Shown here: one piece after another, positions 1 to 16,608 of the stretch | Layout of the letters: each line of letters begins with the position of its first letter | How positions within the stretch are numbered: the stretch's first letter is position 1 | Virus record (IMG/VR): IMGVR_UViG_3300037473_000239 | Location: 1-16,608 of that record | DNA from: a virus | Length of the DNA: 16,608 nt | Reading direction: 5' to 3' (one strand) | Translations under genes and position numbers: made by a program | Notes under the pieces: model-generated | What the model was told of the DNA's origin: nothing | What the model saw: only the letters and a program-made list of their open reading frames with translations | Database searches by the model: none

Positions 1-774
1 GGCGGGCTGTGGTTCCGGGTCAGCTTCGCCGACGGCACGCAGCGGAAGCTCGACGCTACCGACTTCTGGTACGTGCCCGCCCTGGCGATGACGCCCGGGT
101 TCGGGCAGGGCCTGATGCAGCTTGCTCGCCGGTCGTTGTCGACGTCGATTGCCGGGGACAAGGCGGCGGCGAAGATGTTCTCCTCCGGCGCTCTGATTTC
201 CGGCCTGGTGTCGCCGATGGACGAGAGTCTTGACGAAACCGATGACATCCCGACACTCCGCCGGGAGCTGAACAACGCGGTCCTAGGTCACGAGAACGCG
301 GGCACGATCGCGCTGGTGAACCGGCGCTTGCAGTTCACGCCCTGGACGATGACCGCGCAGGCGGCCCAGTTCCTGGAGTCCAGGGCGTTCCAGATCGAGG
401 AGATCGCTCGCTGGACCGGCGTGCCGCCGCACCTGCTCATGCAGACCGACAAGCAAACCTCGTGGGGTACCGGCGTCGACGAGCAGAACCGGGGCCTGTC
501 GAAGTTCGTCCTCGGGCACTGGGCGCAGCGGGTCGAGCAGCGCGCCTCCCGGCTGCTGGTGCAGCCGCGCTGGTGTGAGTTCGACTTCGCCGCGCTGGAG
601 CGGCCGAACTTCCAGACGAACGTCGGCCTTGTCCTCCAGCAGATCGACAAGGGCCTCATCAGCGCCGACTACGGCCGCAAGCTGCTGAACATCCCGGCCG
701 ATGCGGCGCCGGCTGTAGGCCCACAGCCGACACCCGACACGAACGGGGGCGGCAATGATCCGGCAGCCCAGTAA
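1..774 (+). CDS. Phage portal protein, HK97 family: C-terminal part. It is 5'-partial in this window and continues from 16020-16608 across the circular junction.
   Basis: Frame 1 is open from nt 1 and is in phase with the ORF that starts at ATG 16020, since 1 corresponds to 16482. The joined product is 411 aa. Portal-like text is present (FWYVPALAMTPGFGQGLMQLARRS, QFLESRAFQIEEIARWTGVPPHLL), and the gene sits directly upstream of the protease and capsid genes. Confidence 0.9.
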   Translation, partial: GGLWFRVSFADGTQRKLDATDFWYVPALAMTPGFGQGLMQLARRSLSTSIAGDKAAAKMFSSGALISGLVSPMDESLDETDDIPTLRRELNNAVLGHENAGTIALVNRRLQFTPWTMTAQAAQFLESRAFQIEEIARWTGVPPHLLMQTDKQTSWGTGVDEQNRGLSKFVLGHWAQRVEQRASRLLVQPRWCEFDFAALERPNFQTNVGLVLQQIDKGLISADYGRKLLNIPADAAPAVGPQPTPDTNGGGNDPAAQ

Positions 775-1414
775 CCTCGCCGAACTGCGTGCCGCCTGGC
801 GTGCCGCCGAGGGCGTCACCGCATCGGCCCCGTGCTTCCGCCTGGTCAACGCCGCGACGCCGAAGCTGTACGTCAGCGGAATGATCGGCGGCTACGACCT
901 CGACGCGCAGGAGTTCGTCCAGGCCGTGCACGCGCTCGACGTCAAGGCGATCGACGTGCACATCAACAGCCCCGGCGGGTTCGTGTGGGACACGCTCTCC
1001 ATGTACGAGGCGCTGAAGTCCCACCCGGCGACGGTCACCGGATACGTGGACGGTCTGGCCGCGTCCGCCGCAAGCTTCCTGCTCCAGGCGGCCGACCACC
1101 GGGTCATGGCGACCGGCTCCCGCGTGATGGTCCACGACGCCCAACTGGTCGCCGTCGGATCACCGGCCGAAGTCCGGGAGGCCGCCGACATCGGCGACGC
1201 CGTGTCCAACGACATTGCCTCCATCTACGCCGAGCGGGCCGGAGGAAAGCCGACCGCCTGGCGCGGCGCGATGAAGGCCACGACCTGGTATTCGGCGAGC
1301 GAGGCGGTAGACGCCCGCCTGGCCGACCGGGTTTCCACCAAGCAGAACGGGCCGGACAACCGGTCTCGACTCATTCAGGCGCGGGTTCGCGCCCTGGCTA
1401 CCCAGGGAGGGTAG
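755..1414 (+). CDS. Prohead (capsid maturation) serine protease, ClpP-like S14 family
   Basis: ClpP-type motifs are present: DVHINSPGGFVWD, the GLAASAASFLL serine region and VMVHDA histidine. It lies between the portal and major capsid genes and overlaps the portal 3' end by 20 nt. Confidence 0.85.
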   Translation: MIRQPSNLAELRAAWRAAEGVTASAPCFRLVNAATPKLYVSGMIGGYDLDAQEFVQAVHALDVKAIDVHINSPGGFVWDTLSMYEALKSHPATVTGYVDGLAASAASFLLQAADHRVMATGSRVMVHDAQLVAVGSPAEVREAADIGDAVSNDIASIYAERAGGKPTAWRGAMKATTWYSASEAVDARLADRVSTKQNGPDNRSRLIQARVRALATQGG

Positions 1415-2611
1415 ATGCGCACCATCGAGGAGATCACTGCCGCGATGACCGCGCTCGTCGACGGGGCCGCGGACCGCAGCCTCACCGACGACGAGGTCAC
1501 GCAGTACGAGGGCATGGAAAAGGAGCTGAAGACCGTTCAGCGCTCCGACGCCATCCGCACCCGCAACGCGGCCTACAACACCGTGCGGACCCCGGCCGGT
1601 GTTCCGGCTCGCGGTGGCCGCCCGGACGACGGCCGCACCGACCTGGACCGGGCGTTCGAGAACTACCTGCGGACCGGCCGGGAGAACGCCGACATCACCG
1701 AGCTGTACAACGCGCAGGGCGAGGGCGGCTCGGCAGCGGGCGGCTACCTCGTCCCGACGACCATGCGGGACCGCATGATCGAGAAGATGAAGGCGTTCGG
1801 CGGGATCGCCCAGTTCGCCGAGACGATGACCACCACGACCGGCGAGCCGATCCAGTGGGCGACCCTCGACGACACCGGCAACCAGGGTGGCATCGCCGCA
1901 GAGTCCGCCGCCCCGGCGTCCGGTGCCGACCTCACGTTCGGCAAGGGCTCCATCGGCGCGTACCGGTACACCTCCGCCGGTGCCGGATCGAACACGCCGC
2001 TGCGGGTGCCGACCGCGCTGGTCCGGGACTCGGCGTTCGACATCGAGGGCCTGGTGGCGCGGAAGCTGGGCGAGCGGATCGGCCGGAAGATGGCCGTGCA
2101 CTGGGCGACCGGCACCGGCGTGGGCGAGCCTCAGGGCCTGGTCGCGGCCAGCCTGACGCAGGACTACGACCTGAACACGGCCGACACGGTGAAGTACACC
2201 GACGCGGTGAACGCGCAGGACAAGCTCGACGCCGCCTACGACGAGGGCTCGATCTGGCTGATGCGCAAGAACACCTGGTCGCAGTGGCGGCTGGTGGTCG
2301 ACAACAACGGCCGCCCCATCGTGCAGGACTACTCGCAGGGCATCACGGACCAGCCGGTCCGCCGCCTGGTCGGCAGCACCGTGGGGATCAGCGAGCAGAT
2401 GCCGCTCCTGTCGTCGGCCGGGATCACCTACCCGATGGTCTACGGCAACATCCAGCGGGCCTACCTGATCCGCTACGTCGGCGCTCCGACGATCCTCGTC
2501 AACCCGTACAGCCGGATGGCGAACGGGGAGATCGAGTACACCGGCGAGCAGTGGGCTGACGGCCTGGTCCAGGAACGCGCCGCGTACGTCATCGTCCGCA
2601 ACAACACCTGA
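1415..2611 (+). CDS. Major capsid protein, HK97 fold, with an N-terminal coiled-coil scaffold (delta)-like region
   Basis: 398 aa, with the ATG immediately after the protease stop and preceded by GGGAGGG. The N-terminal ~100 aa are helical and charged, followed by AAGGYLVPTTMRDRMIEKMKAFGGIAQFA, which is typical of HK97-family capsids. The gene follows the protease. Confidence 0.9.
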   Translation: MRTIEEITAAMTALVDGAADRSLTDDEVTQYEGMEKELKTVQRSDAIRTRNAAYNTVRTPAGVPARGGRPDDGRTDLDRAFENYLRTGRENADITELYNAQGEGGSAAGGYLVPTTMRDRMIEKMKAFGGIAQFAETMTTTTGEPIQWATLDDTGNQGGIAAESAAPASGADLTFGKGSIGAYRYTSAGAGSNTPLRVPTALVRDSAFDIEGLVARKLGERIGRKMAVHWATGTGVGEPQGLVAASLTQDYDLNTADTVKYTDAVNAQDKLDAAYDEGSIWLMRKNTWSQWRLVVDNNGRPIVQDYSQGITDQPVRRLVGSTVGISEQMPLLSSAGITYPMVYGNIQRAYLIRYVGAPTILVNPYSRMANGEIEYTGEQWADGLVQERAAYVIVRNNT

Positions 2612-2626
2612 GAGGACCGAGGCCCT

Positions 2627-3061
2627 GTGAGCACGTACATCCGTAAGGACCTGGCCGGGGCGAAGGTCCTCGGCGCGGCGAAGCTGACCCTGAACGCGGC
2701 CAGCACCAGCAACTTCGACTTCGGCACGCCGGACGACATCAACCTGGCGACGAACGCGAACTACCGGCCGGGCGATCGGGTCATGGCCGTGTTCACCGGC
2801 ACGACCGGCGGCACGACCAACACCCTGACCTGGTCGGTCCAGGACGCGGACGACTCGTCCGGGTCGATCGGCACCCCGGCCACCGCTGTGACCGACGTCG
2901 TCTACGGCGGCCTATCGGGCGGCACCGGCGACGACTTCACGGTCGTGGCGGTCGAGGTGCAGAACGGCCGTCCGTGGCTGCGGTTCCGGGCGACCGGTAA
3001 CGGCACCACGGACACGTTCGCCCTGGCGTGCGTCGTCCTGTCCATCCCGGTCGACCTGTAG
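2627..3061 (+). CDS. Hypothetical virion protein; possibly head decoration or an accessory capsid protein
   Basis: 144 aa, GTG start, high GC3. The composition is Thr/Gly/Ser-rich and beta-like, with no catalytic motifs. The function is inferred only from its position between the capsid and head-tail adaptor genes. Confidence 0.55.
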   Translation: MSTYIRKDLAGAKVLGAAKLTLNAASTSNFDFGTPDDINLATNANYRPGDRVMAVFTGTTGGTTNTLTWSVQDADDSSGSIGTPATAVTDVVYGGLSGGTGDDFTVVAVEVQNGRPWLRFRATGNGTTDTFALACVVLSIPVDL

Positions 3062-3092
3062 CCGGCCGAAACCGTAAAGAAGGGAGGCGGTC

Positions 3093-3677
3093 GTGACCTG
3101 GGCACCGGACTACGTCACGTTGACGGAGCTGAAGGACTACCTCCGTAACAACGCCCTGGGCGAAGACGTGGCCGACGACGCCTTCTTGGCGCTCTGGATC
3201 ACGACCGTTTCCCGCAACATCGATGACTTCTGCGGACGCCAGTTCGGGCAGGTCGCCACGCTGGAGACCCGCGAATACCGGGCGGCGTACGACCGGCACG
3301 AGGGCGGCTACTTCGCAGAGATCGACGACGTACAGGACGTCGATGACCTGACCGTCATCGACGAGAACGCGAACACCATCACCGACTACACCCTTCTGCC
3401 GCTGAATGCCTCGCAGAAGGGCAAGCCCTACACGCGCATTCGGGTGCCCGGCTGCGGCCCGTTCACCATCGACGCGCTCTGGGGCTGGACCGCCGTGCCC
3501 TCCTCGGTGAAGACCGGCCTCTTTCTCCAGGGCGCACGGCTGGACAACCGGCGTAGCTCGCCGTTCGGGATTGCCGGTTCGCCCTCGGAGGGCTCCGAGA
3601 TGCGCCTTCTGGCCCAGCTCGATCCGGACTTCCGGACCTCGCTGAAGCCATACGTGCGGGACTGGTGGGCGGCATGA
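3093..3677 (+). CDS. Head-tail adaptor (gp6-like head-tail connector family)
   Basis: GTG start preceded by AAGGGAGG. The N-terminal LTELKDYLR motif is typical of gp6-like connectors. The C-terminal WGWTAVPSSVK...DPDFRTSLKPYVRDW resembles actinophage head-to-tail adaptors. Confidence 0.7.
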   Translation: MTWAPDYVTLTELKDYLRNNALGEDVADDAFLALWITTVSRNIDDFCGRQFGQVATLETREYRAAYDRHEGGYFAEIDDVQDVDDLTVIDENANTITDYTLLPLNASQKGKPYTRIRVPGCGPFTIDALWGWTAVPSSVKTGLFLQGARLDNRRSSPFGIAGSPSEGSEMRLLAQLDPDFRTSLKPYVRDWWAA

Positions 3678-4087
3678 ACCTCGACGACGTGGCCGAGGAA
3701 ATGCGGAACGCTCTGGCCACCATCGACGGCCTACGGGTCGCGCAGTGGGGCGCAGGCAGCGTCTCGGCTCCCGCCGGGCTGGTCGGGCTTCCGGTGCGCA
3801 TCGACTACGACGACACCTACGTACGCGGCTCCGACCGGTACCCCGACCTGGAGGTCTACGTCCTGGTCGACAAGCCCCAGGACCGGTCGACGCGCAAGCG
3901 CCTCGCCCAGTACGCGGCGGGTGCCGGGGACAAGAGCGTCAAGCAGGCCATCGAGTCGTACGAGTTCACCAGCTGCGACAAGGACTCCGTGCGGGTCGTC
4001 TCGTGCGAGTTCGAAGAGGTCAAGTACGCCGGGATTCCTTACCTGGCAGCGATTTTCCACGTCGACCTGACCGGCGACGGCGAGTAG
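3674..4087 (+). CDS. Neck or tail-completion protein (head-tail stopper or tail-terminator position); function not recognised
   Basis: Coupled to the upstream gene by an ATGA start/stop overlap; the track's alternative start is GTG at 3665. 137 aa, located between the adaptor and major tail protein genes. Confidence 0.55.
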   Translation: MNLDDVAEEMRNALATIDGLRVAQWGAGSVSAPAGLVGLPVRIDYDDTYVRGSDRYPDLEVYVLVDKPQDRSTRKRLAQYAAGAGDKSVKQAIESYEFTSCDKDSVRVVSCEFEEVKYAGIPYLAAIFHVDLTGDGE

Positions 4088-4097
4088 GGAGGCAACC

Positions 4098-4502: not shown

Positions 4503-4509
4503 GTCGGCG

Positions 4510-4827
4510 ATGGCGAACCTGACGCGCGAGCAGATCCTGGCCCGCAAGACCGGCAAGGGGAAGGCGACGCTGCCCGACGGCACGACCGTGGCGATCCGGG
4601 CGCTGACCCGCGACGAGGTCCTAGAGAGCCAGGAAATGGACAGCCTGGCCGATCGGGACAACTTCATCATCGCGACCGGCGTGACCGACCCGAAGCTGAC
4701 CGTCGAAGACGTGGCCGCGTGGGCGGCCTCGGGCGACGCGGGCGACCTCACCACCGTTACCGACGCGATCGCCGAGCTGTCCCGGCTGAAGCAGGGTGCC
4801 GGGAAAAGCAGCGTGGCTGGAGCTTGA
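4510..4827 (+). CDS. Tail assembly chaperone (gpG-like, zero-frame product)
   Basis: 105 aa and acidic, immediately downstream of the major tail protein. Its 3' end overlaps a second ORF in another frame at a GGGAAAA run. Confidence 0.65.
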   Translation: MANLTREQILARKTGKGKATLPDGTTVAIRALTRDEVLESQEMDSLADRDNFIIATGVTDPKLTVEDVAAWAASGDAGDLTTVTDAIAELSRLKQGAGKSSVAGA

Positions 4828-5005
4828 CGACGATCCGGAACTGGAGTTCGAGTTCCGGCTGGCGAAGGACCTCGGCATGACCGTCCGCCGACTGCGGACG
4901 GAGATGGACAACAGCGAGTTCATCGTCTGGTCCCGCTACTACATGCGGCGAGACGCGGATAAGGAGCTGGCCGCGCAGCAGGCCGCGCAGAGGGCAGGAG
5001 GGTAG
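4802..5005 (+). CDS. gpT-like extension of the tail assembly chaperone. The predicted fusion product spans 4510..~4806 joined to ~4808..5005 through a net +1 frameshift.
   Basis: The frame-2 ORF overlaps the end of 4510-4827 and there is no convincing RBS for its GTG at 4796. The text LAKDLGMTVRRLRTEMDNSEFIVWSRYY resembles the T portions of actinophage chaperones. A slippery GGGAAAA lies at 4801-4807. Confidence 0.5.
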   Translation, partial: GKAAWLELDDDPELEFEFRLAKDLGMTVRRLRTEMDNSEFIVWSRYYMRRDADKELAAQQAAQRAGG

Positions 5006-5008
5006 TAG

Positions 5009-5434
5009 ATGGCCGAGATCGTGCAGATCACGGGCATTCGCGAGTTGAACGCTGCCCTGAAGCGGGTCGACGCCGAGCTTCCCAAGGGTGTGCGTGTCGC
5101 GCTGAACGAGGGCGTCGAGAAGTTGGCCGGCTATATCCGACCGCAGATCCCGACAGACACCGGCGCGGCCCGGCAGAGCGTCAAGCCCGGATCGACCCGT
5201 ACGGCCGCCAGGCTGCGCGTCGGCGGCGCGAAGGCCCGTTACTACCCCTGGCTCGACTTCGGTGGCCAGGGACGCCGCAAGGGCCGTCCCGCGCACCGCC
5301 CGTTCATCTCCGAAGGCCGCTACGTCTACCCGACGCTGCGCAAGCGGAAGCCCGAACTGATCGACGACCTAAACAACGCCATCGCGGGCGTGATCCGTGG
5401 TGCTGGGCTGGAGGTGACCACCGATGGCGGGTAA
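5009..5434 (+). CDS. HK97 gp10-family neck or tail-completion protein
   Basis: The pattern ITGIRELNAALKRV...IPTDTGAARQSV...YYPWLDFGG matches the gp10 family as I recall it (G..el...L, P.DTG, Y...efG). The ATG lies 4 nt after the stop of the T frame. Confidence 0.6.
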   Translation: MAEIVQITGIRELNAALKRVDAELPKGVRVALNEGVEKLAGYIRPQIPTDTGAARQSVKPGSTRTAARLRVGGAKARYYPWLDFGGQGRRKGRPAHRPFISEGRYVYPTLRKRKPELIDDLNNAIAGVIRGAGLEVTTDGG

Positions 5435-6389
5435 CAACACCCTCACCGTGACGATCGCCGGGGAGTCCAAGGGAGCCGAGGACGCGTTCGCCCGCGTCGG
5501 CACCAGCGCCAAGGACATGGACACGAAGGTCCGTGACACCCACGACAGCTTCGACAAGGTCGGCGAGAAGGCCGACGAGGTCGACACCAAGGCGATGGGG
5601 TTCCGCGACACCCTCACCGGTATCCAGGACTCCACCAAGGGCATCAAGGACATCGCCTCCGGCAACTTCGGGTTCGAGTCGCTGCTGACCCTGGGTGCCG
5701 GTATCGGCGACCTGGGCTCCGGCATGTTCAACTTCCTGGTGCCCGCGTTCGGGGCCGTCACCACGGCGGTCCAGGGCATGAACCTTGCGTTCCTGTCGTC
5801 GCCGATCTTCTGGATCATCGCCGCGATCGTGGTCCTCATCGGGATCATCGTGCTGATCGCCACCAAGACCGATTGGTTCCAACGGGCGTGGAAGGCGTCG
5901 TGGGGCTGGATCAAGGACGCCGCAGGCGCGGCCTGGGACTGGATCAAGACCAAGGCGGTCGCCGTCTGGGACTGGCTGAAGAGCATCCCCGGCATGCTGA
6001 AGACGGCCTTCGGGAAGGTCGCCGACATCCTCATCGCGCCGTACAAGTTCGCGTTCAACACGATCGCGAAGCTGTGGAACGCCACCATCGGCAGCCTGTC
6101 GTGGACCGTGCCCGGCTGGATCCCGGGCATCGGCGGCAACACGATCAGCGTGCCGAAGCTGCCCACCTTCCACTCCGGCGGCACCGTGCCCGGCTTTCCC
6201 GGGCAGGCCGTACCCATCATGGCCATGGCGGGCGAGCAGGTGTCGGCCAACGGGAGCGGCGGGCGCGGCGGCACGGTCTACGTGCGTGGTGATGGCCTGG
6301 TCGACTACCTGATTGAGGCGATTGCGGGTGAGGTTCGTCGTCGCGGCGGTGACCCTGGTGCTCTGGGTATCGGTGGTTCCGGTGCCTAA
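5424..6389 (+). CDS. Tape measure protein (unusually short, 321 aa)
   Basis: RBS GGAGGTG lies 8 nt upstream of the ATG. The N-terminus is helical and is followed by two hydrophobic segments (FNFLVPAFGAVTTAV, PIFWIIAAIVVLIGIIVLIA). Trp repeats recur every 11 aa (SWGWIK/AWDWIK/VWDWLK), and a Gly-rich C-terminus contains PTFHSGGTVPG. The gene sits upstream of the tail-tip genes. Confidence 0.8.
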   Translation: MAGNNTLTVTIAGESKGAEDAFARVGTSAKDMDTKVRDTHDSFDKVGEKADEVDTKAMGFRDTLTGIQDSTKGIKDIASGNFGFESLLTLGAGIGDLGSGMFNFLVPAFGAVTTAVQGMNLAFLSSPIFWIIAAIVVLIGIIVLIATKTDWFQRAWKASWGWIKDAAGAAWDWIKTKAVAVWDWLKSIPGMLKTAFGKVADILIAPYKFAFNTIAKLWNATIGSLSWTVPGWIPGIGGNTISVPKLPTFHSGGTVPGFPGQAVPIMAMAGEQVSANGSGGRGGTVYVRGDGLVDYLIEAIAGEVRRRGGDPGALGIGGSGA

Positions 6390-9000
6390 GCAGGATCTCG
6401 CCCTTGAGCTGTACTACTCCGGGTCGTGGCATGACGTCGCCACCGACGACAAGGTGTTCGCAGACGCCCCGGTGACGATCCGGCGCGGCCTGGGTGACGA
6501 GTCCGGCGGCTGGCCGCGACCCGCGACCATCACCGCCCGCCTCGACAACGCCAGCGACAAGTACCGCACCTCTAATCCCGAGTCGCCGCTGTACGGGCTG
6601 GCCGGGCGGAACACGCCGATGCGGGCCTCTGTCGGTGGCACCGTGCGGGGCATCGTCGAGGCGTCCAGTTGGTCGGCCGACCAGACCCCCGACTTCCGCG
6701 CCTCGCCTCGCCGGGGGAAGGCGTGGGTCGATGTGAACGGCGGCGGTGTGCTCCAGCGCATCGGCCAGTGGAACCAGCCGCTCCGGTCGGCGCTCTACCG
6801 GTACGTCGACAAGAGCGGCGTGACCCCGGCCGAGTGGTGGCCGATGGAGGACGCCTCCGGCTCGGCGACGGCCGCCTCCGCAGCGGGCGGCTCGCCGCTC
6901 ACCCCGGTCACGGCCGTGCGGTACACGCTGCCCGACGGAAACCCGCTGCCGCCGGGCGGAGCGCCGAAGTTCGCCGACGGCGCGGGCATCACCGGGTCGG
7001 ACAAGCTGCCGAGCTTCCAGGGCGGCGGCACGCTGTCCGCGCCCGTGCGCAGCGCCAGCTTCAACGGGTACGCCATCGATTGGGTAATGCAGTTCGCTGC
7101 GGGTACCGACGACGGCGGCACGAGTTCGGCGGACGTGCTCCGCTGGCGCGAGTCCGGCACCTACGTGATGTTCACCGTCAACGTGGTCAAGAACAACATC
7201 ACCGTGGTCCACTCCAACGCGGCCGACGCTGTGACCCTAACCGGGACCGGCTCGGCGTCAGCGACGTTCGACGTCTACGACGGTGCACCGCACCACTTCC
7301 GCTACCAGGTGCGCCAGAGCGGCGGCAACTACCTGGCCCAGCTGCTCATTGACAGCTCTGTGGTTGCCACCGCCGACAACTTCACCCCGGGCATGACCGG
7401 CACCGTCGGACGGCCCACACAGATCGAATGGAACCCGGGGGAGCAGCGCGGCGACTACATGCCGACGGCTGCCGGGCACCTGATCGTCTGGGCCTCCGGG
7501 CAGCTCGGCGGACAGCCGGCCGTTTTCTACGCCCTCAACGGGTACGCAGGCGAGCGCACCGCCTACCGGTTTTCCCGCCTCCTCACCGAGGAGGGCATCG
7601 CCTGCTACGTCAGTGCCAGTTTCGACGACTCGATGCCGATGGGACCGCAGCGGCCCGACTCCCTGCCCAACCTGGTCAAGGAGTGCCTCACCACCGAGGA
7701 CGGCCTGGTCTATGACCACGGCACCGATCTGCGCCCGCTCTTCCTGTGCCGGGCCGACCGGTACAACCAGACGCCGAAGCTCGACCTCGCCCCGACGGAC
7801 CTGACGGTCCTGCCGAAGGAGGTCAACGACGACAAGCTGGCCGGGAACGTGGTCACCGCCTCGCAGCGCGACGGCGGGGACTCGACGGCCCGGGATGACA
7901 CCGGCCCGCTCGGCACCCAGCCGCCCCCGGACGGGGCCGGTGAGGAGAAGCGGACCGTCAACGTCAACCTCAACGACCCGGACGACGACCTGCCGCAGGT
8001 GGCCAACTGGTGGCTCAAGAGGGGGACCGTCGACCTCCCCCGGTTCCCGCAACTCACGATCGACCTGAACGCCAACCCGGGTCTGGTCGCCGATGTGGAG
8101 GCGATCAAGCCAGGCGACGTGATCACGCTGACCGGGTTCCGGGAGAACGTCATCCGGCTGATCGTGCTCGGCTGGACCGAGACGATCGGCACCCATACCC
8201 GCACCATCGTCTTCACCTGCGTGCCCGACCAGCAGTTCCAGGTGGGCGTCTGGGACTCCACGTCGAGCCGGTGGGATTCCAGTTCCACGATGCTGGTGGG
8301 CTCGCTGACCACCAGCGGCACAGCGGTGAAGATCGGCACCACGTCCCCCAATGAGTCGTGGTCCACCGCCGGTGTGCCGTACGACGTGATGGTGTCCGGC
8401 GAGCGCATGACCGTGACGGCGATGGGCGCGACCACGACCGACGCGACGCTGAGCGCGAACGGATTCGAGAGTGGCGTCGGTGGCTGGCAGAGCAGCAACG
8501 GCACGCTGACGCAGTCCAGCACGTTCGCCAATTCCGGCAGCTTCAGCGGCCTGCTCACCGTTACCGGCTCTCCCGTCGAGGCCAACATCCGCAAGGCGTT
8601 CGCGAGTTGCCCGCGCGTGGTGCCCGGCCAGGAGTACACGCTGAGCACGTTCGTGCGTTCCGTCGCGACGATCACCGCAGCGTGTCACATCGACTGGCTG
8701 GACGAGAACGGCGTGTTCCTGTCGCGCAACGGCACCAGTGGCTCGCTGTCGTCCGGCGCGTGGGCTTCTCGGGTGGTCACCGCGACGGCACCGGCAGGGG
8801 CCGCCTACGCCCAGTACGGGGCGACGATCAGCGGCTCCCCGGTGGCCGGAACTCTGCTCTACGCCGACGACCTGGTATTGACGGCTACGACGATCCGCTA
8901 CCAGACAGCAACGCTCACGCGCAGCGTGAACGGCATCGTCAAGGCGCAGACCCCCGGCACCCCTGTCCACGTAGCTACCCCCGGGAGGTGGGCGCTGTGA
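6382..9000 (+). CDS. Minor tail / tail-tip protein: distal tail protein (Dit)-like N-terminus and a C-terminal CBM_4_9-like carbohydrate-binding domain. Probable receptor-binding protein.
   Basis: One continuous ORF. The start is uncertain: candidates are GTG 6328, 6373 and 6382, while the track's TTG 6313 would overlap the tape measure gene by 77 nt. N-terminal ATITARLDNASDKYRTSNPESPLYGLAGRNTPMR resembles Dit-type tail proteins. The C-terminal ~144 aa (nt ~8455-8886) reads NGFESGVGGWQSSNGTL...YADDLVL, typical of the CBM4/9 beta-sandwich. Confidence 0.8.
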   Translation: MPKQDLALELYYSGSWHDVATDDKVFADAPVTIRRGLGDESGGWPRPATITARLDNASDKYRTSNPESPLYGLAGRNTPMRASVGGTVRGIVEASSWSADQTPDFRASPRRGKAWVDVNGGGVLQRIGQWNQPLRSALYRYVDKSGVTPAEWWPMEDASGSATAASAAGGSPLTPVTAVRYTLPDGNPLPPGGAPKFADGAGITGSDKLPSFQGGGTLSAPVRSASFNGYAIDWVMQFAAGTDDGGTSSADVLRWRESGTYVMFTVNVVKNNITVVHSNAADAVTLTGTGSASATFDVYDGAPHHFRYQVRQSGGNYLAQLLIDSSVVATADNFTPGMTGTVGRPTQIEWNPGEQRGDYMPTAAGHLIVWASGQLGGQPAVFYALNGYAGERTAYRFSRLLTEEGIACYVSASFDDSMPMGPQRPDSLPNLVKECLTTEDGLVYDHGTDLRPLFLCRADRYNQTPKLDLAPTDLTVLPKEVNDDKLAGNVVTASQRDGGDSTARDDTGPLGTQPPPDGAGEEKRTVNVNLNDPDDDLPQVANWWLKRGTVDLPRFPQLTIDLNANPGLVADVEAIKPGDVITLTGFRENVIRLIVLGWTETIGTHTRTIVFTCVPDQQFQVGVWDSTSSRWDSSSTMLVGSLTTSGTAVKIGTTSPNESWSTAGVPYDVMVSGERMTVTAMGATTTDATLSANGFESGVGGWQSSNGTLTQSSTFANSGSFSGLLTVTGSPVEANIRKAFASCPRVVPGQEYTLSTFVRSVATITAACHIDWLDENGVFLSRNGTSGSLSSGAWASRVVTATAPAGAAYAQYGATISGSPVAGTLLYADDLVLTATTIRYQTATLTRSVNGIVKAQTPGTPVHVATPGRWAL

Positions 9001-9473
9001 CCGTCCTCGCTGGTAACCCGACGTACGCCTCGGACGTGAACGCCGACGTCGCCAAGGCATCGCTCGGCCGGATCGCCCAGACCGACGCCACCGCGAACGC
9101 GGCGGCCACCAGCGGTACCACTGAGCTGGCCGTGGACCAGGTGACGATCAGCGCGGTCAACGGCTACCGCTACAAGATCACGTGGAACATGTCGTTCACC
9201 GGAACCGTCGTCGCTGACACCTTCCTGTTCCGGATCCGGCTGGGTTCCGGCACCGGCGGTAGCCAGTTGGTCTACACGTGCCCGGCAATCCCGTTCAACT
9301 CCGGGAACCAGGCAACCGTGCGCCAGGTGATGGTTACCGAATGGACCGCCAGTTCCACCGCGTCGCAGACCTTCACCGCCACGGTGGTGCGCAACTCCGG
9401 CACGGGTACCGCCACGGTGACCGCCGCGAGTTCAGCCCTGCGCACGCTCTCCGTCGACTACGTCTCCGGCTGA
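8997..9473 (+). CDS. Minor tail protein (hypothetical)
   Basis: GTGA start/stop overlap with the upstream gene, with GGGAGGT 8 nt upstream. 158 aa, Thr/Ser/Ala-rich and beta-like. It is the last gene of the tail module. Confidence 0.6.
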   Translation: MTVLAGNPTYASDVNADVAKASLGRIAQTDATANAAATSGTTELAVDQVTISAVNGYRYKITWNMSFTGTVVADTFLFRIRLGSGTGGSQLVYTCPAIPFNSGNQATVRQVMVTEWTASSTASQTFTATVVRNSGTGTATVTAASSALRTLSVDYVSG

Positions 9474-9482
9474 GGGGCCACC

Positions 9483-9806
9483 ATGAACAAGCTCACCTGG
9501 CCCGCTGTGGGTCTCATCGCGGTCCTCGGCGGGATCGCGGTCCTGCTGGCCACCCTGGCGCACTGGGACGCCGGGGCGATCCTCGGCGTCCTCGGCATCC
9601 TCGGCGGCATCGGCGGCGGTGCGGCGGTGGCGGGGGGAGTGGCCGGGAAGGTGGAGGAGGTCCACGCCCAGACAGCGGCGCAGACCTCCCAGCTCGACAC
9701 CATCGAGCGGCAGACGAACGGCATGTCGACCGCCGAGAAGCAGGACATCGCCGAGCGGGCGGCAGCCGCCGCCATCGCCGCGATGCACCGCGAGGAAGGC
9801 CGCTAG
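9483..9806 (+). CDS. Holin-like small membrane protein (2 predicted TM helices, charged C-terminal tail)
   Basis: 107 aa. TM1 is WPAVGLIAVLGGIAVLLATLA and TM2 is AILGVLGILGGIGGGAAVAGGVAG, followed by a polar, charged coil. The RBS is GAGGGG and the gene sits after the tail genes. No similarity search was performed. Confidence 0.5.
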   Translation: MNKLTWPAVGLIAVLGGIAVLLATLAHWDAGAILGVLGILGGIGGGAAVAGGVAGKVEEVHAQTAAQTSQLDTIERQTNGMSTAEKQDIAERAAAAAIAAMHREEGR

Positions 9807-9991
9807 CGGTCGCCCTGCGGCGAGTACCGCACCCAGCCTGGACCCGAACCGCTGTCCACCCAGACGTCCGAGCCCTCGCCAGCCTCCACAAGCGCCCTCA
9901 TGTAGGCGAAGCCCAGGGACAGATCCTCGTCGTCCTCGCGTATGTCGAGCTGTGGTTCTCCGTCGTCCGGCTGCGTCAAGGTCCACTTCAT
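9803..9991 (-). CDS. Small, highly acidic hypothetical protein (62 aa) in a moron-like position
   Basis: Minus-strand ORF. The internal ATG at 9991 is preceded by GGAG-N6, whereas the upstream ATG at 10018 lacks an RBS. The sequence is MKWTLTQPDDGEPQLDIREDDEDLSL.... Its stop overlaps the holin-like gene's stop in the tetranucleotide CTAG (9803-9806). Confidence 0.5.
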   Translation of the reverse strand: MKWTLTQPDDGEPQLDIREDDEDLSLGFAYMRALVEAGEGSDVWVDSGSGPGWVRYSPQGDR

Positions 9992-10118
9992 GCCCGGCTC
10001 CAAACTGCAAATGTGCATCCTGTGTTGACATGGAGGTTAGTCCGTATCAACCCCTTAGCCCATACCCCTTAGACCGTTTGCGTCATATCAAGATCACAGG
10101 CTGTCTACGTTCTGGGGT

Positions 10119-10328
10119 ATGGCCAAGGCCGAGGAGCTGTACCCGATGGGCGCGGAGGAGATCCGCCAGCGCCTCGGCGTCAGCGTGCAGCGGGCGTACA
10201 TCATCGTGGGCCGCAAAGACTTCCCCGACCCGTGGCGGCAACTCGCACGCGGCAAGGTGTGGCGCTCCACCGACGTCGAAGCCTGGATCAAGGAGCACCG
10301 GCCCGAACTGGCCGAAGGCAACTCCTAA
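10119..10328 (+). CDS. Helix-turn-helix DNA-binding protein, excisionase/MerR-like family; possible recombination directionality factor or regulator
   Basis: 69 aa. The text GAEEIRQRLGVSVQRAYIIVGRKDFPDPWRQLARGKVWRSTDVEAWI fits the excisionase-type wHTH pattern (HTH, then a basic wing, then W...V..W). The gene is immediately upstream of the integrase. Confidence 0.7.
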   Translation: MAKAEELYPMGAEEIRQRLGVSVQRAYIIVGRKDFPDPWRQLARGKVWRSTDVEAWIKEHRPELAEGNS

Positions 10329-10386
10329 GGCTGTCTTGGCGCGACCTTTGTCAGCTCGAAAGTGACGCTGTGACATACTTACCGGC

Positions 10387-11772: not shown

Positions 11773-11800
11773 CCATTAGTCAGTTCGGAATAGACAAAGG

Positions 11801-11826
11801 GGCCCACATAGATGTGGGCCTTTTTG
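11801..11826 (+). terminator. Rho-independent terminator downstream of int
   Basis: The arm GGCCCACAT (11801-11809) pairs perfectly with ATGTGGGCC (11812-11820) and is followed by TTTTT (11821-11825). The terminator lies 29 nt after the int stop. Confidence 0.7.
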
Positions 11827-11849
11827 ATGTGCTTGTGGTGCACGTCACA

Positions 11850-11935
11850 GCGAATTGTCAATTGTTAGTTGACGGGCCGTATCACGTTGTCGGGTTAACG
11901 TTCTGGTGTTCGCGGAGGAGGATCCAGCGAACACC
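11850..11935. promoter_or_regulatory. Regulatory region between int and the early operon; candidate promoter/operator and/or attP
   Basis: The stretch is locally AT-richer. It holds an inverted repeat GTCAA-N7-TTGAC (11857-11873) and the pairing TTGTCA (11855-11860)-19 nt-TATCAC (11880-11885). There is also a perfect 9 bp inverted repeat, GGTGTTCGC (11905-11913) with GCGAACACC (11927-11935), around a GGAGGAGGATCCA spacer. Confidence 0.3.
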
Positions 11936-11970
11936 CACCACAAATCTCCGCCCGGAGAAATGGACGCACC

Positions 11971-12180
11971 GTGCGCACCAAAGTCGACCCTGACGTTGTC
12001 AAAGTCAGGGCCAAGCTCGGCACCGCTGTTCGAGAAAAGAACGCCGACCTTGAAGCTCAGTACCGCCAGGAATTGCACGACCTGAACATCATCGTTGCGG
12101 CCAAGCGGGTCGCAGCCCGACTCCCCGAACTGACTCCGGAGAAGCGCGAGCAGATCCGCGCGTTGCTCGGCGGTGCCTAA
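11971..12180 (+). CDS. Hypothetical small protein (69 aa), first gene of the early operon
   Basis: GTG start with GGAG 13 nt upstream. GC3 is moderately high. Its stop overlaps the next ATG as TAATG. No motif was recognised. Confidence 0.5.
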   Translation: MRTKVDPDVVKVRAKLGTAVREKNADLEAQYRQELHDLNIIVAAKRVAARLPELTPEKREQIRALLGGA

Positions 12181-12827
12181 TGGCGCGGGATGGGGGTTCC
12201 CGGCCTGCGGGTAACAGGCCGGGAACCGATCCCAGCGTAGACCGCTTCATCATGGTGCCGGTCGACGTCATGCACTACGTCGCCAAGGGACTCAGCCCAA
12301 CGGCCGCATGGCTCTACGTGGTGCTGCTCAGCCACCACAACCGCAAGCGCGAGGACAACGACGTGTGGCCGTCCCGCAAGTCGCTGGCCGAGGCTTTGGG
12401 GCTGAAGAAGGTCGACAACGTCGACAGGTACCTGCGCGAGCTGAGCGACTCGGGGCTTATCAAGTCTCGTCGCCGTGCGGGAGGCGTAAAAGGCGACGGC
12501 GTCGCGAATCAGACCAGCGTGTACACGCTCCTGCTAACCGTTAAGCCCGAAAGGCCCAAAGCGCAGGAGACGGCCCCCCCACCCCCTTCTGCGGGGGCAC
12601 CCCACCCCCATCAATGGGGTTACCCCCACCCCCATGAATCGGGTAACCCCACCCCCGCAGAAGGGACACGAACTAGAGGAAGTGAACTAGACGAATCTGA
12701 ACTAGATGAAATGAACAACAGTTGGCCCCCCCTCGCTTCGCTCGGCACCCCCCAAGGGGTGCACGACGACGAAACCGAAGTTGTCGAAGCCGAAATCGGC
12801 AATTGGGCTGACCCGTGGGCCAGCTAG
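12180..12827 (+). CDS. Winged-helix DNA-binding protein; putative replication initiator or replisome organiser
   Basis: The N-terminal text FIMVPVDVMHYV...LSPTAAWLYVVLLSHHN...WPSRKSLAEALGLKKVDNVDRYLRELSDSGLI is typical of phage and plasmid wHTH initiator N-domains. A Pro/His-rich linker and an acidic C-terminus follow. The linker coding DNA carries the iteron-like array. An alternative start is ATG 12252. Confidence 0.6.
   Translation: MARDGGSRPAGNRPGTDPSVDRFIMVPVDVMHYVAKGLSPTAAWLYVVLLSHHNRKREDNDVWPSRKSLAEALGLKKVDNVDRYLRELSDSGLIKSRRRAGGVKGDGVANQTSVYTLLLTVKPERPKAQETAPPPPSAGAPHPHQWGYPHPHESGNPTPAEGTRTRGSELDESELDEMNNSWPPLASLGTPQGVHDDETEVVEAEIGNWADPWAS
12574..12720. repeat. Putative origin of replication inside the initiator gene: four ~23-24 bp iteron-like units followed by an AT-rich block with three GAACTAGA repeats
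   Basis: CCCCACCCCC occurs at 12577, 12600, 12624 and 12647. Each copy is followed by N6-7 and a G-run, giving internal dyads (CCCCC-ttctgc-GGGGG, CCCCC-atcaat-GGGG, CCCCC-atgaatc-GGG, CCCCC-gcagaa-GGG). Units 2 and 3 are 21/24 identical, and units 1 and 4 form a 14 bp inverted repeat (CCCTTCTGCGGGGG / CCCCCGCAGAAGGG). GAACTAGA occurs at 12670, 12684 and 12699 in the most AT-rich coding stretch. Confidence 0.55.
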
Positions 12828-12884
12828 CTCCTCGGCGAGAACTTCAAAAGCGCACCGACAACGAGACCCGGAAGGGCACCAGCC

Positions 12885-13289
12885 ATGAGTAATCCGTTCA
12901 AGCCTGGCCACCAGGTGAACCTTCACCACGGTCATGCCATCACCGGCGACTTCTCGCCGACGTACCAGACCTGGCGGTCGATGCGCGCCCGCTGCCGCCC
13001 CACCGGCAAGTACGGGCTGCGAGGCATCACCGTCTGCGACAGGTGGGCCGACTTCGGGGCATTCCTGGCCGACATGGGCGAACGCCCGCCCGGAAAGACC
13101 ATCGACCGCATTAACAACGACGGCAACTACACGCCGGACAACTGCCGGTGGGCCACGCCGAAAGAGCAGGCAGCCAACCGTCGCCGCCCTGGCCCGCCTT
13201 CCGCAGAAACGCGGGCGCGTATCTCACTCAGGCTCCGCGCAAGGAACGCCCAGGCCCGACTCATCGCCGCCCTGACCGCAGCGGCATAA
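12885..13289 (+). CDS. HNH_3/AP2-like DNA-binding protein (degenerate HNH-related); function uncertain
   Basis: 134 aa. The pattern YQTWRSMRARC...GITVCDRWADFGAFLADMGERPPGKTIDRINNDGNYTPDNCRWATPKEQAAN recurs in phage proteins usually annotated as HNH-like. The first His position is Arg here, so the protein may be non-catalytic. Confidence 0.5.
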   Translation: MSNPFKPGHQVNLHHGHAITGDFSPTYQTWRSMRARCRPTGKYGLRGITVCDRWADFGAFLADMGERPPGKTIDRINNDGNYTPDNCRWATPKEQAANRRRPGPPSAETRARISLRLRARNAQARLIAALTAAA

Positions 13290-13325
13290 CCACCCACGCA
13301 ACAACCGAGAGAAGGAGCGCCAGCC

Positions 13326-13559
13326 GTGAAGCACATCAACTTCAACCTCCCCTTCGGCGCGCGGACCGACATGCGCGTCAAGCAGGACAGCGCCCTCAGC
13401 CGCGCCCACGACATCGCCGCAGCAGCCGAAAAGCTCAGCCTCGAAGTCGCCGACCTCGGAGACCGCGTCACCACCATCACCGCATCACTCAAGGCGCACC
13501 ACGTCGCCATCGCCGACCTGGTGCAAATGCTCACCGACGAAGCCGACGACCAGGAATAA
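13326..13559 (+). CDS. Hypothetical 77 aa helical protein, paralog A, with C-terminal LTDEADDQE
   Basis: GTG start preceded by GAAGGAG-N8. The sequence is predicted to be helical or coiled-coil. Its 3' 30 nt are identical to the 3' end of the next gene. Confidence 0.55.
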   Translation: MKHINFNLPFGARTDMRVKQDSALSRAHDIAAAAEKLSLEVADLGDRVTTITASLKAHHVAIADLVQMLTDEADDQE

Positions 13560-13569
13560 GGGAGAGATC

Positions 13570-13803
13570 ATGCGCACCGAAACCCGCACCGCTCTGGAGT
13601 TGCACAAGGAGCACCTGACTGGCTGCGTCGAACGGCTCCGGACCGAACTGGAGAAGGACACGGCGCAGTGGACTGATCGCCTCGCGAGGCGGACCGGAGA
13701 TTTGGCCGATGCTGAGGCTCAGTTGGCTGCAATCACCGCCGACCTCGATGAGCCTTCGACCGTCGTCACCACGCTCACCGACGAAGCCGACGACCAGGAA
13801 TAG
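13570..13803 (+). CDS. Hypothetical 77 aa helical protein, paralog B, with C-terminal LTDEADDQE
   Basis: ATG preceded by GGGAGAG. It is the same length as paralog A and has the same last 9 residues. The body is coiled-coil-like (LRTELEKDTAQWTDRLARRTGDLADAEAQLAAI). Confidence 0.55.
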   Translation: MRTETRTALELHKEHLTGCVERLRTELEKDTAQWTDRLARRTGDLADAEAQLAAITADLDEPSTVVTTLTDEADDQE

Positions 13804-13808
13804 CCGCC

Positions 13809-14075
13809 ATGAGCAAGGCATGGGCCGGAGGCAGCGACACACGCTGGCGTCGCTTCCGGCTCACCATCCTGGAGAGAGACCGATGGCTCTGCACACTCAA
13901 GCTGGACGTCTGCACCACAACAGCCCAGCACGTACACCACGTCATCCCGCTGGCCAGGGGCGGAGCCAAGTACGACCCGGGCAACTGCACCAGCGCATGC
14001 GCAGCGTGCAACCTCAAGCTCGGCGACAGAGCACCGACACCACAACCCGAACCACGACCCACATCCTCATGGTGA
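13809..14075 (+). CDS. HNH endonuclease (packaging-associated type)
   Basis: 88 aa. The beta-beta-alpha-metal motif has paired cysteines: WLCTLKLDVC...HVHHVIPLARGG...DPGNCTSACAACN. Confidence 0.85.
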   Translation: MSKAWAGGSDTRWRRFRLTILERDRWLCTLKLDVCTTTAQHVHHVIPLARGGAKYDPGNCTSACAACNLKLGDRAPTPQPEPRPTSSW

Positions 14076-14161
14076 TCGACTGGGCACCCACGTTCCTGCC
14101 CGCACTCATCCTCTGCGCCCTCGGATTCCGATGGGGCACGGAATTCGTCGTGACCTTCTGA
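14069..14161 (+). CDS. Possible 30 aa hydrophobic micro-ORF (very tentative)
   Basis: The ATG overlaps the HNH stop (ATGGTGA). It encodes MVIDWAPTFLPALILCALGFRWGTEFVVTF, which would form one TM-like helix. There is no independent support. Confidence 0.2.
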   Translation: MVIDWAPTFLPALILCALGFRWGTEFVVTF

Positions 14162-14228
14162 AAAGTTGACGGGCTGTGGCCCACCGAACACCCGCTGATC
14201 TGTTTTTTTGTGTGCGAGTTTCCCCAGC

Positions 14229-15972: not shown

Positions 15973-15985
15973 GAATGCAGCGTAC

Positions 15986-16001
15986 CTATGTACGTACATA
16001 G
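15986..16001. promoter_or_regulatory. Perfect 16 bp palindrome CTATGTACGTACATAG in the divergent terS/portal spacer; candidate operator
   Basis: The sequence equals its own reverse complement. It is flanked by TANNNT hexamers: AGCGTA at 15979-15984 (TACGCT on the minus strand, 6 nt before the terS ATG) and TAGCAT at 16007-16012 (7 nt before the portal ATG). Confidence 0.5.
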
Positions 16002-16019
16002 TGAGGTAGCATCGGCACT

Positions 16020-16608
16020 ATGAGGTGGCCGTGGTCGCGTCGGGCTGAGCAGCCCGCGAACACGTCGCTGTCCATCGCCGACCCCGCGCTGGCCGCCCTG
16101 TTCTCCCCTGGCTGCGTCGTAGACCTGGCCGGGGTAGAGGTGGGGGAGCAGTCCGCTCTCGGCCTCAGCGCCCTTTTCCGGGGCGTCTCGCTGATCTCCG
16201 GCACCCTCGCCTCGCTGCCGCTGCGGTCGCTGAACCTCGACGATTCCGGTGCGCCGCAACAGGTTCCGTCGGTTTTCGACGACCCGGACGGGCCGGACGG
16301 CCAGACGCCGTACGAGTGGAAAGAGACCCTGTTCGCGCACCTGGTGATTCACGGCCGGGCCGGAGCGCTGAGGGTCCGCAACGAGGCTGGCGGCATGGCC
16401 CGTCTGGCGCTGGTGCACCCGCTGTGCTTCTACCCGGAGCAGCCGACGCAGGAGGAGTACCGGACGGGCAGGCTGCCTGCGGGCGGGCTGTGGTTCCGGG
16501 TCAGCTTCGCCGACGGCACGCAGCGGAAGCTCGACGCTACCGACTTCTGGTACGTGCCCGCCCTGGCGATGACGCCCGGGTTCGGGCAGGGCCTGATGCA
16601 GCTTGCTC
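16020..16608 (+). CDS. Phage portal protein, N-terminal part. It is 3'-partial in the window and continues at nt 1 (128 in non-redundant numbering).
   Basis: ATG at 16020, with the frame open to the window end. The text EQSALGLSALFRGVSLISGTLASLPLRS is typical of portal N-termini. The last 127 nt duplicate the window start. Confidence 0.85.
   Translation, partial: MRWPWSRRAEQPANTSLSIADPALAALFSPGCVVDLAGVEVGEQSALGLSALFRGVSLISGTLASLPLRSLNLDDSGAPQQVPSVFDDPDGPDGQTPYEWKETLFAHLVIHGRAGALRVRNEAGGMARLALVHPLCFYPEQPTQEEYRTGRLPAGGLWFRVSFADGTQRKLDATDFWYVPALAMTPGFGQGLMQLA
16482..16608. repeat. 127 bp terminal overlap identical to 1-127 (circularisation signature of the contig)
   Basis: A base-by-base comparison of both ends shows they are identical. 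The repeat lies inside the portal reading frame and preserves the frame. Confidence 0.95.

Follow-up and report, generated by a model that had tools for sequence, protein, structure and literature searches.

Small temperate phages of actinobacteria are already documented: 109 of the 3,222 genomes in PhagesDB are shorter than 20 kb (bioRxiv 10.1101/2022.02.05.479200), and the Gordonia clusters CW and DM are made up of temperate phages of 17.1–17.7 kb (PMC5559632; bioRxiv 10.1101/2022.02.05.479200). Phages of these two clusters (GMA5, GRU3, Jeanie and McGonagall) are siphoviral and encode mostly virion genes; those of CW have a repressor, show integration-dependent immunity and use an attB in tRNA-Lys (PMC5559632). 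The Rhodococcus phage RRH1 (14.3 kb), the Arthrobacter clusters AN, AX and FE and the Microbacterium cluster EE are of similar size and possess a comparable, minimal siphovirus gene set, but are lytic and carry no integrase. Here we describe the element held by the IMG/VR virus record IMGVR_UViG_3300037473_000239, the full 16,608 nucleotides of which (positions 1–16,608; ‘the window’) were analysed. Judging from its sequence, we interpret it with moderate confidence as the complete genome of a small, temperate, cos-packaged siphovirus of an actinobacterial host that has no endolysin of its own.

In size and siphoviral content the element fits amongst the small actinophage clusters (CW, DM, AN, AX, EE, FD, FE, GE and RRH1), but sequence similarity fails: megablast of the circularised genome against 50,697 phage records returned no match, and the best identities to isolated phages are 32% for the large terminase subunit (terL; actinophages), 33% for the capsid protein and 28% for the baseplate hub. 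Compared with the CW phages it has a serine integrase, no recognisable repressor or lysin and no nucleotide match; nor is it close in sequence to the lytic RRH1, AN/AX/FE and EE. Since small temperate actinophages are documented, a ‘minimal temperate actinophage’ is an already known kind, and the novelty that the initial annotation of this sequence had implied on that account falls away; the comparison with known small-phage clusters that it proposed revealed no close identity. New here is the family itself, abundant and uncultured, in which the terminase block is inverted and converges on cos; within it there appears to be a sub-group lacking any recognisable endolysin, and the replication functions of the window itself seem to have been cut to a single initiator gene.

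Removal of an exact 127-bp terminal overlap leaves 16,481 bp of unique sequence (67.5% GC) that close into a circle, as first proposed; the repeat was verified letter for letter. Assemblers often finish with a k-mer of 127, and both ends of the window fall inside the portal open reading frame (ORF); the overlap therefore reflects a circular assembly path and is no biological terminal repeat. The list of ORFs of at least 50 aa runs to 118, many of them spurious at such a high GC content, and the true frames were therefore chosen by codon-position GC, giving 25 genes and a probable 26th, which is small. Coding density reaches 95.7%, third-position GC backs a single coding frame almost everywhere and just three gaps are 100 bp or longer (10019–10118, 11773–11970 and 14076–14228), so that there is no space left for an uncalled lysin-sized or hidden gene. 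Neither pseudogenes nor frame disruptions occur in the window, and a tRNA scan of it found no tRNA.

Against this background, searches of Pfam, PHROGs and NCBIfam, also at relaxed limits (E of 0.1 for NCBIfam and 5 for Pfam), together with PDB sequence searches, recovered no peptidoglycan hydrolase; tblastn detected no remnant in the window of the M15_4 or phrog_32486 lysin genes carried by relatives. The same four collections yielded no polymerase, primase or helicase, and the three profile libraries no immunity repressor of the CI/Cro, LexA-like or GntR type, in agreement with the gaps that had been noticed from the letters alone. On this negative evidence the endolysin appears to be truly absent from the element.

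Comparison with relatives (fetched loci, numbered with the prefix L) locates the point at which the lysin would have been lost. The holin-like protein of the window is 67% identical to L012_105, and its homologues precede a lysin candidate in L006, L012, L020 and L021; at the nucleotide level the gene is 82% identical to that of an Actinoplanes sp. NPDC051861 prophage (L020), with the similarity ending at the stop codon. Beyond it L020 continues into a 210-aa lysin candidate; in the window an acidic 71-aa ORF on the minus strand comes next, and after it the HTH_17 gene and the integrase gene (int). Lysin candidates of the ~220-aa family phrog_32486 always lie 3' of the holin-like gene (L010 10951–11613, L012 12628–13311, L013 18218–18874, L020 13384–14016, L021 5112–5768) and keep the invariant residues GDxAH, SxHNP, D and HTxHxH. 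Profile comparison linked this family neither to the Peptidase_M15_4 endolysin that forms the post-holin gene of L006 nor to the PDB, and we consider it a candidate for a new family of metallo-endolysins.

The lysin-less state recurs in at least four serine-integrase relatives (L001, L002, L023/24 and L026/27). L023 keeps a holin-like gene; none was recognised in L001, L002 or L026, the last of which has a small single-transmembrane (TM) ORF. The probable extra gene of the window, a 54-aa ORF immediately before cos, is read in a different frame from the HNH gene whose 3' end it overlaps; it has a homologue in a 53-aa ORF of L026 (13970–14131), the two sharing VQPxARRQ...LPALxLxAL...FVVTF.

On the sequence, virion assembly, packaging and cos are all self-encoded. 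The genes terS and terL are separated by 20 bp from the portal gene, which points the other way, and read leftward toward the genome end, an orientation of terL relative to portal that is identical in all fetched family loci. The initial annotation had missed this inverted block, the cos site and the replacement of the lysin recurring among relatives, and three minus-strand genes (terL, terS and the 71-aa ORF) required correction to the coordinates of Table 1. No inverted repeats border the terS–terL block, and its fixed orientation across the family led us to reject both an invertible switch and a misassembly. The 88-aa HNH gene stands at the right genome end and adjoins cos and terL in relatives too; with cos between this gene and the 3' end of terL, the two converge upon it.

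The cos site is defined by the borders of contigs from different assemblies, which stop at ...GGACAC (L026, L023) or start at [C/G]TGTTT (L004, L006, L008), L007 starting CCGCAG-TGTTT; this junction is found away from the ends in the window, in L001 (6320–6350), L002 (4400–4440), the L013 prophage (6195–6225) and L016 (6250–6275). Together they give the consensus ...G[GA]ACAC / CCGC-N5-6 / TGTTT(T-rich), with a conserved GAAAAGTT ~25–30 nt upstream. We take these borders as the likely signature of a cos with a ~9-nt cohesive end, presumably a 3' overhang: it is absent from both contig ends, as would follow from its removal in library preparation. Such a signature implies packaging from one defined site by the element's own terminase. 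Moreover, a second contig of this phage, from the same JGI sample (3300045391), has its first base at window position 14201. That is exactly the border of the cos cut and points to DNA that terminase had cleaved, so that cleaved genomes probably occurred in the sample. The arrangement recalls that of HK97-like cos phages, in which a right-end HNH gene (HK97 gp74) and a left-end terminase flank cos and an HK97-fold capsid is accompanied by a protease, but in the family described here terS–terL is inverted, HNH and terL converge on cos and the genome is under half as large.

Capsid homologues number 677 in public metagenomes, the best 120 of which are 56–88% identical to that of the window; for none of these 120 does the longest contig exceed 19.4 kb, and most of the long ones measure 15–19 kb. 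The picture is of a large, uncultivated family of 16–19-kb elements. All fetched loci share a common layout—terL← terS← / →portal, protease, capsid, 144-aa protein, neck, tube, chaperones, Neck1, tape measure, hub and a 147–195-aa protein—and a variable right arm: ‘lytic-type’ relatives have a two-TM protein, a 210–227-aa gene, HTH genes and a D5-type primase-helicase, and ‘temperate’ ones an integrase and an AAA_25 helicase. Measured against them, the window is without the post-holin lysin candidate, a helicase/primase and a ~170-aa tail accessory gene, and it is the smallest full-length genome of the family that we examined. Its closest full-length relative is L026/27 (identity of 73% in the hub, 65% in the capsid and 64% in the integrase); L002 is a complete circle of 19.0 kb. 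An integrated relative exists in the form of an 18.5-kb prophage of Phytohabitans aurantiacus RD004123, bounded by a 43-bp repeat of a tRNA-Met 3' end and comprising a tyrosine integrase, a helicase, an HNH gene, the inverted terminase block and a lysin candidate. More distant capsid relatives are found in Haloactinopolyspora, Jiangella and Mycobacterium genomes, hub homologues in Actinoplanes genomes and Streptomyces phages, and the tail module in Actinoplanes prophages; the host is probably a high-GC filamentous actinobacterium of Micromonosporaceae-like type, to which the chromosomal homologues of the integrase and the holin-like gene shared with the Actinoplanes prophage also point. Dense coding, gene set and relatives alike thus speak for the near-minimal, complete tailed-phage genome of an actinobacterial-type host that was suggested at the outset.

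For replication, the window offers a single winged helix-turn-helix (wHTH) protein of the HTH_36 family. Some of its homologues match RP-C or DnaD_N, and in the PDB the DnaD N-domain comes closest to it (E = 0.06), suggesting a weak affinity of the family to replication initiators. Two sets of iterons lie in the 3' part of the gene, CCCCACCCCC occurring four times against a chance expectation of 0.15 and GAACTAGA three times against 0.14; an array so placed would represent the classic layout of an initiator gene holding its own origin, and the initiator-like gene with putative ori of the initial annotation is thereby recovered. Phage lambda, with its ori within the O gene, and the Rep genes of iteron plasmids are alike in this respect, combining a wHTH gene with iterons and then A+T-richer repeats; unlike lambda, the window has no recognisable P-like helicase loader, and similarity to O, DnaD and RP-C is weak. 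A scan of IMG/VR and the metagenome collection with the wHTH protein gave no match, even to the source contig itself. In relatives, homologues of the 69-aa protein that heads the early operon (11971–12180) precede the helicase gene. The two coiled-coil-like 77-aa paralogues found in tandem further downstream have no family match and no homologue in the fetched relatives. Positions 12500–14000 display a strong strand bias (GC skew to -0.17, AT skew to +0.34) and a GC content of 63–65%, below that of the structural arm, as would fit a module of different origin.

The integrase comprises Resolvase, Recombinase and Zn-ribbon domains, with homologues of 58–61% identity in many Micromonospora chromosomes and also in those of Actinoplanes and Krasilnikovia. 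Next to it is the HTH_17 protein, homologues of which adjoin the integrase in L001, L023 and L026, making it a candidate directionality factor or regulator; where an immunity repressor is concerned, it and the HTH_36 protein, both of uncertain role, are all that the window offers. A relative (L002) carries a GntR regulator. Within the gap upstream of the HTH_17 gene, ACCCCTTAG is present twice in 10050–10072 at a 14-nt spacing (chance expectation 0.03), and AGGCTGTCT stands shortly before the HTH_17 gene and again shortly before int (10098–10106 and 10328–10336; chance expectation 0.07); these may be binding sites of a regulator or recombination factor, and the gap would be one of two candidate attP regions. 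A further motif, (C)TATG[GA]CATACT, precedes the int start by ~8–10 nt (window 10366–10386) and recurs in L018 (7276–7296), L019 (9980–10000), L021 (7196–7216) and L023 (9980–10000). Found as it is in unrelated phages and in a chromosomal remnant of the same integrase clade, it suggests a conserved promoter or short-leader arrangement.

Transfer of an attB from Micromonospora kangleipakensis, the source of the closest chromosomal integrase homologue examined (61%), was rejected, the junction motif being absent from the window. The 68% homologue is that of an unrelated phage of 42 kb, which upstream of int has AAGTATGGCTC in common with the interrupted comM/ChlI-type gene of M. kangleipakensis; the window is without AAGTATGGCTC, so no attB could be transferred. 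At the M. kangleipakensis locus itself (L019 9722–13221; SHLD01000001), a ~2-kb insertion splits a comM/ChlI-type gene between yraN-like and dprA; it contains only the serine integrase (61% to that of the window) and one 183-aa minus-strand gene, and is the remnant of a prophage or else a minimal integrative element.

Taken together, these features would allow the following cycle for a small temperate cos siphovirus. After entry the DNA would circularise at cos; the wHTH protein would bind its internal iterons and, given that no phage helicase, primase or polymerase is present, might recruit the host replisome. The serine integrase and HTH_17 protein would integrate and excise the genome, with attP between the holin-like gene and int. 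The right arm may have been gained by module exchange, recombination at the holin-like stop codon having swapped out a lysin candidate such as that seen in the Actinoplanes prophage. As for release, we can offer a speculative guess: the two-TM holin-like protein, perhaps with the 54-aa TM protein, would depolarise the membrane and thereby free wall hydrolases of the host.

Several points weigh against this interpretation. The element is known here from assembled sequence alone, and the case for a missing lysin and repressor is one of negative evidence. The lysogenic lifestyle would follow from the integrase and from the relatives; the search for integrated copies and attB that had been recommended found one relative integrated but, for the element itself, no integrated copy, attP or attB. 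The wHTH protein also matches phrog_16198, a ‘transcriptional repressor’ family (3e-8), and could be a repressor. Seven proteins (of 144, 158, 71, 69, 77, 77 and 54 aa) yield no functional assignment. The second contig, at 16,519 bp, exceeds the circle by an unexplained 38 bp (wrap-around, a small indel variant or a short terminal repeat are possible). Finally, holin-triggered autolysis contributes to release alongside a phage lysin, as with pneumococcal LytA, and to our knowledge it occurs solely in phages that also encode a lysin.

A different explanation of the missing lysin is dependence upon another phage. The initial annotation had entertained a satellite or phiRv1-style mini-prophage, and small size, capsid, protease, terminase and (in phiRv1) a large serine integrase are indeed common to the element and to phiRv1/phiRv2; a capsid homologue of 43% identity is present in the genome of Mycobacterium aquaticum. 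PhiRv1 and phiRv2, however, are not known to have tail genes and span ~10 kb, whereas the window has a complete tail, cos and both circular and apparently cos-cleaved forms; the cf-PICI and P4-type satellites resemble it in size range (10–17 kb), integrase and, for some, structural genes of their own, but are helper-reliant and, as far as is known, do without terL and/or tail genes, all of which are encoded here. With its own terL, terS, portal, capsid, full tail and cos, and as part of a large family of 16–19-kb genomes, some bearing an endolysin and primase-helicase and some integrated, the element would appear to be neither a phage satellite nor a phiRv1-type remnant. Nor is it a gene transfer agent, a chromosomal cluster of structural genes that packages random host DNA and has no replication or integration genes of its own: the circle is self-contained and holds an integrase, a specific cos and an initiator gene containing an ori. 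There is also a narrower form of dependence, a ‘lysis satellite’ that builds its own particles and borrows its endolysin (and perhaps helicase loading) from a co-resident prophage or superinfecting phage. The loss of the relatives' lysin candidate and helicase, of the ~170-aa tail accessory gene and of part of the tape measure in the smallest full-length family genome would fit it, and an Actinoplanes-type prophage, with its 82% identical holin-like gene paired with a 210-aa lysin candidate, exemplifies a donor. We think it fairly unlikely, as at least four further relatives that carry a serine integrase, and whose head or replication modules differ, are lysin-less as well, which argues for a stable design rather than one-helper parasitism, and as helper-sensing regulators, capsid-redirecting genes and missing structural genes, the hallmarks of satellites, are absent.

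That same recurrence in complete genomes means that some lysis route should exist, and the phage might accordingly be autonomous by way of a lysis protein that our searches did not recognise: a new wall hydrolase (the 144- or 158-aa protein) or a single-gene factor (9483–9806 or 13997–14161) that blocks wall synthesis. Unrecognised lysis enzymes do seem to exist in the group, phrog_32486 being itself unannotated and having invariant His/Asp residues, and small TM ORFs are present in lysin-less members. On the other hand, the 158-aa protein lacks histidine and resembles a fast-evolving, all-beta receptor-binding protein, the 144-aa protein is located in the head module, PHROGs, Pfam and NCBIfam reveal no similarity to lysis proteins, and we know of no single-gene lysis in tailed phages; we judge this possibility unlikely. 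Defectiveness through recent decay, such that the element excises and circularises with no productive cycle and was sampled in a metagenome by chance, would account for the lysin and helicase missing relative to relatives, and prophages without an endolysin are conventionally scored as defective (PMC8637289); that convention is also all that the literature offered on phages truly devoid of one. Yet the clean breakpoint at the holin-like stop codon, the dense and intact coding, a second contig starting exactly at the cos cut and the recurrence of the layout in independent lineages argue against simple decay, for which we see only a slender chance. A phage-plasmid, maintained as a low-copy circular episome through the Rep-like wHTH protein and using its recombinase mainly as a multimer resolvase, seems very improbable too: the Rep-like protein with its internal iterons is plasmid-like, the genome assembles as a circle and none of the 120 closest capsid homologues sits on a contig above 19.4 kb, but the recombinase shows the domain make-up of a large serine integrase (Recombinase and Zn ribbon), its closest annotated relatives are chromosomal, partition genes are absent and one family member is integrated with att sites.

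Possession of an endolysin is treated as a universal trait of tailed phages. A densely coding, intact and circular genome that lacks one, and that has apparently been cleaved at cos, challenges the scoring of such prophages as defective, albeit through negative evidence. The wider proposition, that a sub-lineage of complete, cos-packaged, integrase-bearing actinobacterial phages dispenses with endolysin and exits by small membrane proteins (through host autolysins or a single-gene block of wall synthesis), is a conjecture that we hold to be rather doubtful; single-gene lysis by blocking wall synthesis has so far come only from tiny ssDNA and ssRNA phages. Were it true, a tailed phage whose Gram-positive host has a thick wall could do without an endolysin. 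If productive, the lysin-less elements would imply an alternative release route in filamentous actinobacteria; they would also rank amongst the smallest self-sufficient temperate tailed phages, needing ~26 genes for virion, integration and replication, and could provide a minimal chassis or integration vector for Micromonospora and Actinoplanes, important producers of antibiotics. Should the lysin prove to be unrecognised or supplied in trans, the finding shrinks to a new family of small actinophages.

Table 1. Features of the window, in order along the genome from the assembly overlap (aa, amino acids; TM, transmembrane)
Feature	Position	Strand	Evidence or remark
Assembly overlap	1–127		exact 127-nt terminal direct repeat inside portal gene; identical to 16482–16608
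Portal, 411 aa	16020–16608 joined to 128–774 (3' part in window 1–774)	+	PF04860, 1.5e-51, joined ORF
ClpP-type prohead protease, 219 aa	755–1414	+	PF00574, 1.6e-22
HK97-fold major capsid protein, 398 aa	1415–2611	+	PF05065, 4e-40
144-aa protein 3' of capsid gene	2627–3061	+	phrog_5707 (unannotated); 52–74% identity in relatives
Head-tail adaptor	3093–3677	+	phrog_442, 2e-15
Tail terminator	3665–4087	+	phrog_17840, 3.7e-17
Major tail (tube) protein, 134 aa	4098–4502	+	phrog_9522, 3.7e-12
Tail assembly chaperone pair	G 4510–4827, T 4796–5005	+	phrog_344, phrog_337
Neck1 / tail-completion protein	5009–5434	+	phrog_5, 2.6e-14
Tape measure, 321 aa, one hydrophobic segment	5424–6389	+	15 tape-measure PHROGs
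Baseplate hub / tail tip protein, 872 aa	6382–9000	+	AF2 model + Foldseek
158-aa all-beta protein 3' of hub	8997–9473	+	positional homologues in all relatives
Holin-like protein, 107 aa	9483–9806	+	TM scan; two TM helices, charged C-terminus
Acidic 71-aa ORF, in place of lysin gene	9803–10018	-	codon-position GC; no family match
Low-GC regulatory gap	10019–10118		ACCCCTTAG twice (10050, 10064), AGGCTGTCT (10098)
HTH_17 / excisionase-type protein, 69 aa	10119–10328	+	phrog_66, 7.7e-6; HTH_17, 0.026
Large serine integrase, 461 aa	10387–11772	+	PF00239 (2.9e-27), PF07508, PF13408
GC-rich hairpin	11801–11820		followed by TTTTT on + strand; terminator-like, after int
69-aa protein heading early operon	11971–12180	+	34% to L001_97; similar proteins in L023, L026
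wHTH (HTH_36) initiator-like protein, 215 aa	12180–12827	+	PF13730, 2.3e-7; phrog_270 ‘replication initiation protein’, 1.8e-14
Ori-like array in 3' part of initiator gene	12577–12706		CCCCACCCCC four times at 23–24-nt intervals, then GAACTAGA three times at 14–15-nt intervals
Free-standing HNH endonuclease, 134 aa	12885–13289	+	phrog_374, 4.8e-34
Two 77-aa paralogues	13326–13559, 13570–13803	+	identical 30-nt 3' ends (LTDEADDQE*)
Terminase-associated HNH endonuclease, 88 aa	13809–14075	+	PF01844, 2e-9
Probable extra gene, 54-aa single-TM protein	13997–14161	+	GC3 0.83 in non-overlapping part
cos, ~9-nt cohesive end (CCGCTGATC)	14192–14200		flanks ...GAACAC and TGTTTTTTTG; whole junction 14186–14210
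terL, 504 aa	14229–15743	-	phrog_9, 2.6e-60
terS, 116 aa	15649–15999	-	PF23931, 8e-5, under curated cut-off; positional homologues in relatives
16-bp perfect palindrome CTATGTACGTACATAG	15986–16001		terS/portal divergent control region

Working rightward from the portal gene, a single operon of ~10 kb runs through to the fibre-like protein 3' of the hub. Profile matches support the head, neck and tail set, terS and terL, serine integrase and wHTH gene named initially, with HNH genes numbering two. The gene set is that of a tailed dsDNA phage (Caudoviricetes) with an HK97-fold capsid and a siphovirus-type tail: tube, frameshifted chaperones, tape measure and hub are all present, and no search produced a sheath match, as expected of a non-contractile tail. 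A slippery GGGAAAA occurs at 4801–4807, with chaperone T in the +1 frame. The 144-aa protein may have a head accessory role, its position being the sole ground. At 321 aa the tape measure is shorter than those of relatives (334–466 aa); a PHROG label of ‘endolysin’ attached to it was discarded, the match sitting in the tape-measure core of a composite family.

For the 872-aa protein we built an AF2 model from an alignment of 32 homologues (pLDDT 78). Its best Foldseek match is the T5 tail tip (7zhj_b, 3e-11), followed by the VgrG, gp27 and Mu gp44 hubs; it also matches BoNT Hc domains, that is, lectin-like insertions of the botulinum-toxin receptor-binding type, and its C-terminal extension corresponds, in the homologues that have one, to a CBM_4_9 carbohydrate-binding domain (PF02018). 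The model contains no hydrolase domain, and is best described as a predicted baseplate hub with lectin-like domains; the PHROG label ‘phosphodiesterase’ was set aside, the match falling in the hub core and the model showing no enzyme domain. The 158-aa protein that follows has no Pfam, PHROG, NCBIfam or PDB match, no histidine and no enzyme signature; fast-evolving, it may serve as a fibre or receptor-binding protein. Its single-sequence AlphaFold model (pLDDT 52) was too poor and was kept out of the fold search.

Between terS and portal, the palindrome CTATGTACGTACATAG is unusually AT-rich for this genome, takes in the start codon of terS and sits 19 bp ahead of the portal start; not conserved in relatives, it may be an operator of the divergent late promoters. 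Elsewhere in the family the head genes themselves vary: those of L023/24 differ from the window in being fused, and in both L023 (1–1370) and L021 (13519–16530) portal, protease and capsid form one protein of ~1,005 aa, with Phage_portal and Peptidase_S78 matches.

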